From: Enterobacteria phage P922
Sequence record: OR999189.1
DNA length: 64,000 bases
Strand: one strand, 5' to 3'
Numbering within the stretch: the stretch's first letter is position 1; each line of letters begins with the position of its first letter. The notes beneath the pieces are model-generated. The model had not been told where the DNA came from and ran no database searches. It saw nothing but the letters and a program-made list of their open reading frames with translations. Position numbers and translations under genes: made by a program. Shown one piece after another: positions 24,647 through 26,203 of this stretch.

Positions 24647-24874
24647 ATGGCTAAAGTTGATATTGACATCGTTGATTTTGAATATATTGAAGAAATTATT
24701 CGTAATCGTTATCCTGAACTTAGTATCACAAGCGTACAAGATTCTAAGTTTTGGAGTATTCAAATCGTTATTGAAGGTCCTTTAGAAGTTCTTGAGCGAT
24801 TTATGGCTAATGAATATTGTGATGGCATGGATGCTGAAGACGCAGAATTTTACATGGGACTGATTGAACAATAA
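24647..24874 (+). CDS. hypothetical acidic protein (75 aa)
   Basis: AGAGGAAAACAATATG start. Confidence 0.5.
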
Positions 24875-24919
24875 CTATCAAGGGGCTGTCAGGCCCTTAT
24901 TAAAATGAGGAAAATCAAA

Positions 24920-25306
24920 ATGGAAATCGGCAAAAAATATGAGTTAAATCCACATCGTATTAAATCTTTCATTGATATTAGTTCATCAAATGCTAATATG
25001 GTCGGTATCATTCAAGAAAATGGTGGTTGGTTTGAAGTTAAATCAATATCAAGTTTAGATGGCTTTGATTATGTAACCGAAATCATTTGTGCTAATGGCG
25101 AAATCTATTATAATGATGGCATAGGTGATGATTATTTTGAACTTAGTGAAGAAGAGTTTTATTGTTTCCGCGAGTATAAAGAACCGACTTCTGAAGAAGA
25201 TGAAGTCGAAGACAAGATTTCTGGCGTAACAAAAATTCACTGCATTGTAGACGAAAACAATGTAGATGAAATCATTGAACTTTTGCGAAAAACTTTCAAA
25301 AAGTAG
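24920..25306 (+). CDS. hypothetical protein (128 aa)
   Basis: second ATG preferred: TGAGGAAAATCAAAATG. Confidence 0.45.
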   Translation: MEIGKKYELNPHRIKSFIDISSSNANMVGIIQENGGWFEVKSISSLDGFDYVTEIICANGEIYYNDGIGDDYFELSEEEFYCFREYKEPTSEEDEVEDKISGVTKIHCIVDENNVDEIIELLRKTFKK

Positions 25307-25311
25307 TTTAC

Positions 25312-25350
25312 AGTAGGGTAGTAGTGTGATACTATTACCCTATCAACTAA
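25312..25350 (+). promoter_or_regulatory. T4-type early promoter
   Basis: GTAGTTTACAGTAGGGTAGTAGTGTGATACTATTACCCTATC; -10 region flanked by inverted repeat GGGTA/TACCC. Confidence 0.5.
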
Positions 25351-25360
25351 GGAGAATAAA

Positions 25361-25603
25361 ATGAGATTACAACGTCAGAGCATTAAAGATTCAGAAGTTA
25401 GGGGTAAATGGTATTTTAATATCATCGGTAAAGATTCTGAACTCGTTGAAAAAGCTGAACATCTTTTACGTGATATGGGATGGGAAGATGAATGTGATGG
25501 ATGCCCTCTTTATGAGGATGGAGAAAGCGCAGGGTTCTGGATTTATCATTCTGACGTCGATCAGTTTAAAGCTGATTGGAAAATTGTGAAAAAGTCTGTT
25601 TGA
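25361..25603 (+). CDS. hypothetical protein (80 aa)
   Basis: AAGGAGAATAAAATG start. Confidence 0.5.
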   Translation: MRLQRQSIKDSEVRGKWYFNIIGKDSELVEKAEHLLRDMGWEDECDGCPLYEDGESAGFWIYHSDVDQFKADWKIVKKSV

Positions 25604-25613
25604 GGAAAATATT

Positions 25614-25949
25614 ATGTCTGACATTCACGTAACTGGAATTGCCCAAGTAAACATCCGTTGCCAATTTAAAACTGTACCTGGGGTGACTCATATTACTTTA
25701 TCACACGACCCATATTCTCGTGGAAGACAGTTGACTGGTGCAATTAAGTTTTTTGGTGGAATTGGCGGAAACGAATTTACTATAGGCGATGACGAAATTG
25801 TTGGTTGTAAATTAAAAGTTCAGAAGGGAGTGTTAGAACTTTTTAGTGATGAAATTTTTAATGAAATCTCACAAGCAGTTAATAAAGGACTGCTAACGTT
25901 AATTAAAATGATTAAAGCCAGTGGATATGTTCCCGATCCTTTATATTAG
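25614..25949 (+). CDS. hypothetical protein (111 aa)
   Basis: GAGGAAAATATTATG start. Confidence 0.5.
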   Translation: MSDIHVTGIAQVNIRCQFKTVPGVTHITLSHDPYSRGRQLTGAIKFFGGIGGNEFTIGDDEIVGCKLKVQKGVLELFSDEIFNEISQAVNKGLLTLIKMIKASGYVPDPLY

Positions 25950-25957
25950 GAGATAAT

Positions 25958-26203
25958 ATGATTTTTGTATTTGAATTTATGAATGATGAATTCGATTATG
26001 CAATTTTTAACGCATTGCATAATCCTGATTTAAATGAATTTAATGAAATGTTTTCTGACGCTTTGAGTATGTCAGAAGAATACTGCGGAGAATGTCAACG
26101 CGTTTGTGTGACAGTCTTTGAAAACAAAGAAAAGACATATGAAGAATTATTCTTTGATGCTAATAAAGCCACTGAATGGTTTATTGAAAGGGGTTTTGCG
26201 TAA
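25958..26203 (+). CDS. hypothetical acidic protein (81 aa)
   Basis: ORF with SD, coupled to frd start. Confidence 0.45.

Follow-up and report, generated by a model that had tools for sequence, protein, structure and literature searches.

We analysed the interval between gene 32 and the dihydrofolate reductase gene frd in Enterobacteria phage P922 using a 64,000-nt stretch of sequence record OR999189.1. This window, by which we mean the whole stretch analysed, is a Tequatrovirus segment whose plus strand corresponds to the minus strand of T4. The open reading frame (ORF) listing placed five plus-strand ORFs of 75, 128, 80, 111 and 81 amino acids (aa) at 24647-26203, in exact agreement with the sizes and coordinates given in a preliminary description of this DNA. 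The cluster and its boundary genes were as follows:

23594-24502, plus strand: gene 32, the upstream boundary of the cluster
24647-24874, plus strand: ORF1, the frd.3 orthologue, 75 aa (PF05798 and T4 synteny)
24920-25306, plus strand: ORF2, the frd.2 orthologue, 128 aa (PF03197 and T4 orthology)
25361-25603, plus strand: ORF3, the frd.1 orthologue, 80 aa (PF17438, DUF5417)
25614-25949, plus strand: ORF4, 111 aa, of the DUF7247 family (PF23905, phrog_3566)
25958-26203, plus strand: ORF5, 81 aa (phrog_3183, without a Pfam family)
26203-26784, plus strand: frd, the downstream anchor gene (92% aa identity to T4 Frd and the T4 annotation of the homologous region)

ORFs 1-4 scored about 100 bits or more over the Pfam gathering scores and all five ORFs gave full-length PHROG matches with E<=1e-33. 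The ratio of nonsynonymous to synonymous substitution rates (dN/dS) was calculated by the pairwise Nei-Gojobori method against the orthologues from T4, Nami, W143, PE37, RB27 and two IMG/VR contigs. The values ranged from 0 to 0.66 over the five genes, all of which are therefore under purifying selection. Because of the Pfam excess, the PHROG matches and these dN/dS values, the five ORFs are genuine protein-coding genes and not chance frames. The short length of ORF4 and ORF5, their lack of a known function and the low confidence of their structure models would be expected of chance open frames in an AT-rich spacer. We consider chance frames scarcely credible, as ORF4 matched the DUF7247 profile with 146.5 bits (gathering score 27, profile positions 1-104 of 106) and ORF5 matched phrog_3183 at E=2.3e-43 (residues 1-81 aligned to positions 1-80 of the 80-position profile), both with full-length PHROG matches, and each is preceded by a Shine-Dalgarno sequence at the correct spacing. 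The dN/dS was 0.13-0.66 for ORF4 and 0-0.05 for ORF5 with many synonymous changes, and the reading frame is kept in the homologues of other genera at 36-50% aa identity.

Two predicted early transcription units

The window was searched with the T4 early-promoter pattern GTTTAC-N15-TGNTANNNT. Ten matches were found, all on the plus strand, compared to 0.05 expected from shuffled sequence, and two of these fell in the 32-frd interval, which agrees with the two early promoters proposed earlier. The promoters and the hairpins around them were located as follows:

24525-24543, plus strand: intrinsic-terminator-like hairpin 3' of gene 32, GGGGACC-CTAGA-GGTCCCC followed by a T-run (terminator scan; fold of -14.3 kcal/mol)
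24574-24603, plus strand: predicted early promoter P_E1, GTTTACA-N14-TGGTACTAT, serving frd.3 and frd.2 (pattern search and sigma-70 scan)
24881-24898, plus strand: small hairpin with a 7-bp stem between frd.3 and frd.2 (-11.2 kcal/mol, z of -1.3, alone not significant)
25306-25335, plus strand: predicted early promoter P_E2, GTTTACA-N14-TGATACTAT, serving frd.1 through frd (pattern search; conserved in T4)
About 25313-25343, plus strand: hairpin with a 14-bp stem enclosing P_E2 (-19.2 kcal/mol, z of -4.2, with 0 of 200 shuffles as stable)

Both promoter matches have the features of the T4 type, with a GTTTAC -35 element, 17-bp spacing, an extended -10 (TGnTAnnnT), A/T-rich DNA upstream and the same orientation as the early genes. 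P_E1 lies within a block that is 95.9% identical to T4. The two early promoters, predicted from the pattern and from T4 homology, are well supported at the sequence level. In T4, early RNA and detected proteins are documented for frd.3, frd.2, frd.1 and frd, with the products of frd.3 and frd.2 listed as early proteins (PMC9697503 supplement). The frd.3 mRNA ranks with the most abundant of the RNAs that carry an NAD cap in T4 (bioRxiv 10.1101/2024.04.04.588121).

The first early unit would run from P_E1 through frd.3 to frd.2 and the second from P_E2 through frd.1, ORF4, ORF5, frd and a 68-aa ORF to td. From frd.1 onward the genes are separated by spacers of 8-10 nt or overlap (TAATG or ATGA). 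ORF4 starts 10 nt past the frd.1 stop, and the ORF5 stop overlaps the frd start in a TAATG so that frd is translationally coupled to ORF5. Because of these short spacers and overlaps, ORF4 and ORF5 would be carried on the frd early transcript.

The deletion scar in T4 and the fate of the interval in relatives

The corresponding T4 region (NC_000866, 145762-146802) resembles that of P922 in position, orientation, the two early promoters and three genes at 95-99% aa identity. The T4 record annotates exactly three ORFs between gene 32 and frd, namely frd.3 (75 aa), frd.2 (128 aa) and frd.1 (80 aa), which bears out the count of three small frd.x ORFs that the preliminary description gave, without certainty, for T4. 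T4 differs in having a 71-bp scar in place of ORF4 and ORF5 and, between frd.2 and frd.1, an 84-bp insert not present in the window. When the window was compared to T4 using BLAST, 22447-25356 and 25347-25670 aligned and the alignment resumed at 26183. T4 does not have one-to-one orthologues of all five ORFs, as the following segment is without a counterpart:

About 25671-26182, plus strand: segment of about 512 bp without a T4 counterpart, comprising most of ORF4 and ORF5 (BLAST blocks, pairwise alignment and junction sequences)

The 71-bp T4 spacer between frd.1 and frd reads ATGTATGTCATTGAAATTATCCAAGTAAGCATTCGTTTTCAATTAAAATAG and translates as MYVIEIIQVSIRFQLK followed by a stop, which aligns with the ORF4 N-terminus MSDIHVTGIAQVNIRCQFK. 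This remnant covers the first ~16 codons of ORF4 and is decayed with a 9-nt deletion. The 3' end of the spacer, GGATTTACGTAATG, encodes G-F-T-stop over the frd ATG as compared to G-F-A-stop at the end of ORF5 (GGTTTTGCGTAATG), and T4 keeps the last three ORF5 codons with their stop as well as the TAATG overlap with frd. The deletion spans ORF4 codon ~19 to ORF5 codon ~78. Because the spacer retains remnants of each gene, the T4 lineage once had both ORF4 and ORF5 and then lost both, with an ancestor that carried the two genes losing about 0.5 kb between short similar sequences (ATTnAAA). The T4-type junction was found in only 17 records (T4 isolates, T4T, RB55, RB59 and G2133).

Together the sequences argue for a loss in T4 and not a gain in P922, with T4 as the exception, and we hold this evolutionary picture and the transcriptional one above with high confidence. 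The earlier suggestion that the interval carries additional or replaced accessory genes therefore holds in that ORF4 and ORF5 are absent from T4. It does not hold as a gain, as T4 lost the genes and the layout is a common one.

As a side observation, the 84-bp T4 insert between frd.2 and frd.1 (NC_000866 ~146015-146083) contains a good Shine-Dalgarno sequence, GGAGAAAAGAAAATG, ahead of a hydrophobic micro-ORF of 22 aa that is missing from the annotation, MFAPYIMAAVMLVCLYLLIKAC. This sequence was also present in RB27 and two IMG/VR contigs, and was absent from the window (25336-25360), Nami, W143 and PE37.

The 2-kb interval matched 615 phage records, with a coverage of at least 80% in 295 of them. 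Among deposited Tequatrovirus genomes this arrangement of five genes, or one close to it, was common. The genes of EcNP1, vB_EcoM_Nami and ECO07P4 are laid out as the five of P922 are, with 97% DNA identity, and these phages encode exactly the ORF5 and frd proteins of P922, although Nami, the closest relative, does not have segG upstream of gene 32. Both extra genes are also present in T6, PST and RB27. These three phages differ from P922 in carrying a divergent 119-aa ORF4 allele with 63-66% aa identity, and RB27 has an additional 86-aa ORF between frd.2 and frd.1.

A large class that includes T2, W143, ECML-134 and HP3 has kept ORF5 and is missing ORF4. The junction of the T2/W143 type lies in two similar ribosome-binding-site spacers, GAGGAAAATATTATG and TAGGAGATAATATG, and the loss was apparently a short-homology deletion by recombination between these spacers. 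In still further lineages unrelated cassettes have been swapped in. In PE37 the ORF5 slot is occupied by a 113-aa ORF without a Pfam family (L004 2396-2737, L004 being the PE37 locus). This ORF is 96% identical to gp249 of Gaprivervirus SP18, which sits in the ORF4 slot (L012 2163-2504, L012 being the SP18 locus), while core proteins of the two genera are 60-73% identical, indicating recent inter-genus cassette exchange in the slot.

Hyperplastic regions and cassette shuffling by promoter early stem-loop (PeSL) elements have been described in T4-like phages (Arbiol 2010, PMC2839356; Comeau 2014, PMC4122927). The P922 interval is alike in that its small early ORFs of unassigned function differ from one close relative to the next, and in having promoters and stem-loops at 24525-24603 and 25306-25343. 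The composite structure of a PeSL (stem-loop, early promoter, Shine-Dalgarno and start codon in intergenic DNA) was found twice, at 24525-24649 with the terminator hairpin, promoter, Shine-Dalgarno and ATG of frd.3, and at 25304-25363 with the hairpin overlapping the promoter followed by AAGGAG and an ATG. However, the breakpoints of the T4 deletion and of the T2/W143 ORF4 loss lie away from the PeSLs, in coding sequence or ribosome-binding-site spacers, and resemble short-homology deletions and not mini-circle excision. The 32-frd segment is a typical variable hyperplastic stretch of T-even early genes and its arrangement is ordinary.

These features bear on the opposite direction of change, in which ORF4 and ORF5 would be a recently acquired mobile cassette, brought in by a PeSL mini-circle or as a by-product of SegG homing, and T4 would represent the ancestral empty state. 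Intervals of this type are known for promoter/stem-loop cassette swaps (PMC4122927), there is a PeSL-like element at 25306-25343 and a segG gene at 22906-23538, and the inter-genus exchange described above occurred in the same slot. However, remnants of ORF4 and ORF5 as seen in T4 are unexpected in an empty ancestral site, and in four genera DUF7247 lies at this position behind frd.1. In addition, the 17 records with the T4-type junction belong almost entirely to T4 strains and the near-identical T4T, RB55 and RB59, with G2133 besides, and ORF4 and ORF5 adjoin the genes on either side through spacers of 8-10 nt or a TAATG overlap, with no promoter/stem-loop element flanking them. We regard a recent gain as very unlikely compared to loss of both genes in T4.

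Family relationships of the five products

The frd.3 orthologue matched PF05798 (Phage_FRD3) with 134.9 bits (gathering score 28.1, residues 1-75 on profile positions 1-75 of 75) and shares 96% of its aa with T4 Frd.3, which is encoded at the corresponding place in T4. Its dN/dS was 0.04-0.43 and the product is acidic, with an isoelectric point (pI) of 4.05 and a net charge of -13.5. The frd.1 orthologue matched PF17438 (DUF5417) with 114.6 bits (gathering score 23.9), is 99% identical to T4 Frd.1, gave dN/dS of at most 0.04 and contains a conserved C-D-x-C-P-x-Y-x-D-G motif.

For frd.2 the first ATG, at 24905, would give 133 aa and the ATG at 24920 gives 128 aa. The start was placed at 24920 because the GAGGAAA Shine-Dalgarno lies ahead of this second ATG and the T4 annotation uses the same start. 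The frd.2 orthologue matched PF03197 (FRD2) with 128.9 bits (gathering score 29, profile positions 1-96 of 96), has 95% aa identity to T4 Frd.2, a dN/dS of 0.19-0.32 and an acidic product (net charge -16.3), and gave a weak PHROG match to goF (E=0.0011). T4 Frd.2 has been modelled using AlphaFold with an N-terminal LSm-like barrel alongside GoF and MotB.1, and amber mutations in frd.2 leave the plating of T4 normal (Kim et al. 2025, PMC12152347). By its 95% orthology to the modelled T4 protein, the 128-aa P922 product is predicted to belong to this family of LSm-like early proteins, which is defined by an N-terminal five-stranded bent antiparallel beta-sheet. The likeness is confined to frd.2, as DUF7247, ORF5, frd.1 and frd.3 were each aligned to frd.2 with hhalign probabilities below 1%. 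The all-against-all hhalign comparison gave no sign of paralogy among the five proteins (probabilities of at most 0.8%), which ruled out a common origin for them and also ruled out DUF7247 as a further LSm-like relative of Frd.2.

Three further observations concern frd.2. The C-terminal ~30 residues (SGVTKIHCIVDENNVDEIIELLRKTFKK) were near-identical across the Tequatrovirus alleles compared, giving the gene a mosaic appearance. Overall identity between the window allele and those of L003, PE37 (L004), L006 and SP18 (L012) went down to 44-67%, with the differences located in the N-terminal part that is predicted to be LSm-like. SP18 also carries two frd.2 copies in tandem. The GenBank record of phage Nami (MZ502380) names its frd.2 homologue a 'putative PinA peptidase inhibitor' and its ORF4 homologue 'DUF2861'. 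Both names were unsupported, as Pfam and PHROG gave FRD2 and DUF7247 respectively.

ORF4 has a product of neutral charge. DUF7247 was found by tblastn in 477 phage records, with 158 at >=80% identity, 81 at 60-80% (the 119-aa allele, as in PE37, RB27, PST and wV7) and 238 below 60%, this last class being other genera. ORF4 was present in ~240 Tequatrovirus genomes. In Jiaodavirus, Karamvirus and Gelderlandvirus DUF7247 lies directly after the frd.1 homologue and before frd, and in Phapecoctavirus ESCO5 it lies amid unrelated small ORFs away from frd. The homologues formed 72 clusters, all with PF23905 and nearly all on large phage-sized contigs, and no informative fusions of DUF7247 were seen among these clusters. 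In IMG/VR there were two related loci, both on near-identical T-even contigs. Comparison of the two ORF4 alleles (111 and 119 aa) gave dN/dS of 0.58-0.66 as compared to at most 0.04 for the adjacent frd.1, and this elevation points to an interaction surface on which selection is diversifying or relaxed. A 196-aa protein on one 7.4-kb Logan contig (P0026) was an in-frame ORF4-ORF5 fusion. Seen only once, it could be a natural fusion and a hint that the two genes are functionally linked, or else an artefact of assembly or of an indel.

ORF5 gave no family in the Pfam search and its product is acidic (pI 4.05, net charge -13.4). A tblastn search located it in 469 records. In 435 of these, T2, T6 and RB32 among them, the aa identity was >=90%. 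The dN/dS of ORF5 did not exceed 0.05. An exhaustive HMMER search of 1.84 billion representatives returned four matches, all of one narrow family, and an ORF5 homologue with 37% identity lies directly upstream of frd in Gaprivervirus SP18.

AlphaFold2 modelled ORF4 as five strands and a C-terminal helix from a 15-sequence alignment (mean predicted local distance difference test, pLDDT, of 44.9) and ORF5 as three helices from a 9-sequence alignment (pLDDT 53.2), both unreliable. When these models were compared to the PDB using Foldseek the best E-values were meaningless (0.34 for ORF4 and 0.71 for ORF5). Sequence and profile searches of the PDB gave no match for DUF7247 and noise only for ORF5. 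The literature search returned no paper mentioning DUF7247 or DUF5417 and no published work on ORF4 or ORF5, and the HIDEN-SEQ and AV110 Emp preprints contained nothing on the 32-frd region.

The flanks of the cluster were also variable. The very basic 68-aa ORF between frd and td (26781-26987, plus strand; pI 10.3; phrog_9550, without a Pfam family) has an ATGA overlap with frd and a TAATG overlap with td. T4 lacks this ORF and has a direct overlap of frd and td. At this place W143, PE37 and the IMG/VR contigs have a 115-117-aa ORF with no match to the 68-aa one. The td gene (26987-27847) is intronless, missing the T4 group I intron with I-TevI, and the junction is at 27535/27536. The homing endonuclease gene segG is present as in T4 and missing in Nami. 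The eight further early-promoter matches were at 4012, 4526, 7669, 10134, 34196, 37517, 41049 and 50003, all on the plus strand. The 24-nt core GTTTACAAGTCCCTCGTGTTGTGTTATA is the same at 34196 and 50003, which points to a promoter cassette that has been repeated.

Proposed function and weight of the evidence

We propose that the interval is an early accessory segment whose products are small, mostly acidic, dispensable early binding proteins, and we give the evolutionary, transcriptional and functional reading taken as a whole a probability of roughly 0.7. The products would be made in the first minutes of infection as non-enzymatic binding proteins of 75-128 aa, with Frd.3, Frd.2 and ORF5 at net charges of -13 to -16, and would tune host or phage macromolecules in a host-dependent manner. 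Frd.2 would probably act on RNA via its predicted LSm-like barrel, and ORF4 and ORF5 would probably have proteins of the host or the phage as their binding targets, with a host-dependent and dispensable part in host takeover or counter-defence. Because T4 grows without both genes following its natural deletion, ORF4 and ORF5 would be dispensable in laboratory hosts, and because the genes are dispensable they could be lost or exchanged without killing the phage. These functional assignments for the individual products are tentative, and we would put them at somewhat below even odds.

Several points weigh against this proposal. The function given to ORF4 and ORF5 is deduced, with the idea of binding drawn from size, charge, timing and dispensability, which suit many functions. 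The NCBIfam and PADLOC searches with ORF4 and ORF5 gave insignificant matches only, and their AlphaFold2 models were unreliable with nothing in Foldseek at E<0.3. ORF5 is near-invariant (98-100% aa identity), which is unusual for a fast arms-race gene. P_E1 and P_E2 are predictions from the sequence pattern and T4 homology. In addition, the T4 CRISPRi-ART screen gave frd.2 the score 'Fit', as it did for no other gene of unknown function (PMC11879866). This conflicts with the viable frd.2 amber mutants and calls for caution about dispensability of the whole cluster.

The position of ORF4 and ORF5 also raises the question of a role as auxiliaries of deoxynucleotide synthesis, acting as partners or regulators of Frd, Td or NrdAB. 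Such a role would explain the coupling from frd.1 through ORF4, ORF5, frd and the 68-aa ORF to td by 8-10 nt spacers and TAATG or ATGA overlaps, and the slot directly upstream of frd is conserved across genera. However, both genes are lacking in T4, which is the phage with the best-studied nucleotide-synthesis enzymes, and ORF4 is lacking in the T2-type phages. Furthermore, DUF7247 in ESCO5 is not beside frd, and no similarity to nucleotide-metabolism families was found in the Pfam, PDB and NCBIfam searches. We judge an auxiliary role in nucleotide synthesis unlikely, and prefer dispensable early binding proteins.

A more specific proposal is that frd.1, DUF7247 and ORF5 are translated together and work as a single early module, a host-range or counter-defence device, with its stepwise loss (of ORF4 in the T2-type phages and of both ORF4 and ORF5 in T4) explaining some of the differences in defence sensitivity between T2, T4 and T6. 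The adjacency of frd.1 and DUF7247 in four genera, the tight coupling, the P0026 fusion and the raised ORF4 dN/dS are weak hints of such a module, which we think improbable.

Being conserved and, on our reading, early and dispensable, ORF4/DUF7247 and ORF5 are reasonable, if unremarkable, candidates for screens of phage-host interaction genes. Hundreds of records already list the two extra genes as hypothetical proteins, one of them with a Pfam family, and the deletion scar in the T4 reference is the only mildly new point. The importance of the finding is modest, lying mainly in tidy annotation. Because T4 carries a lineage-specific deletion here it misleads as a yardstick, flagging common T-even genes as extra, and is a poor template for the accessory genes of T-even phages.

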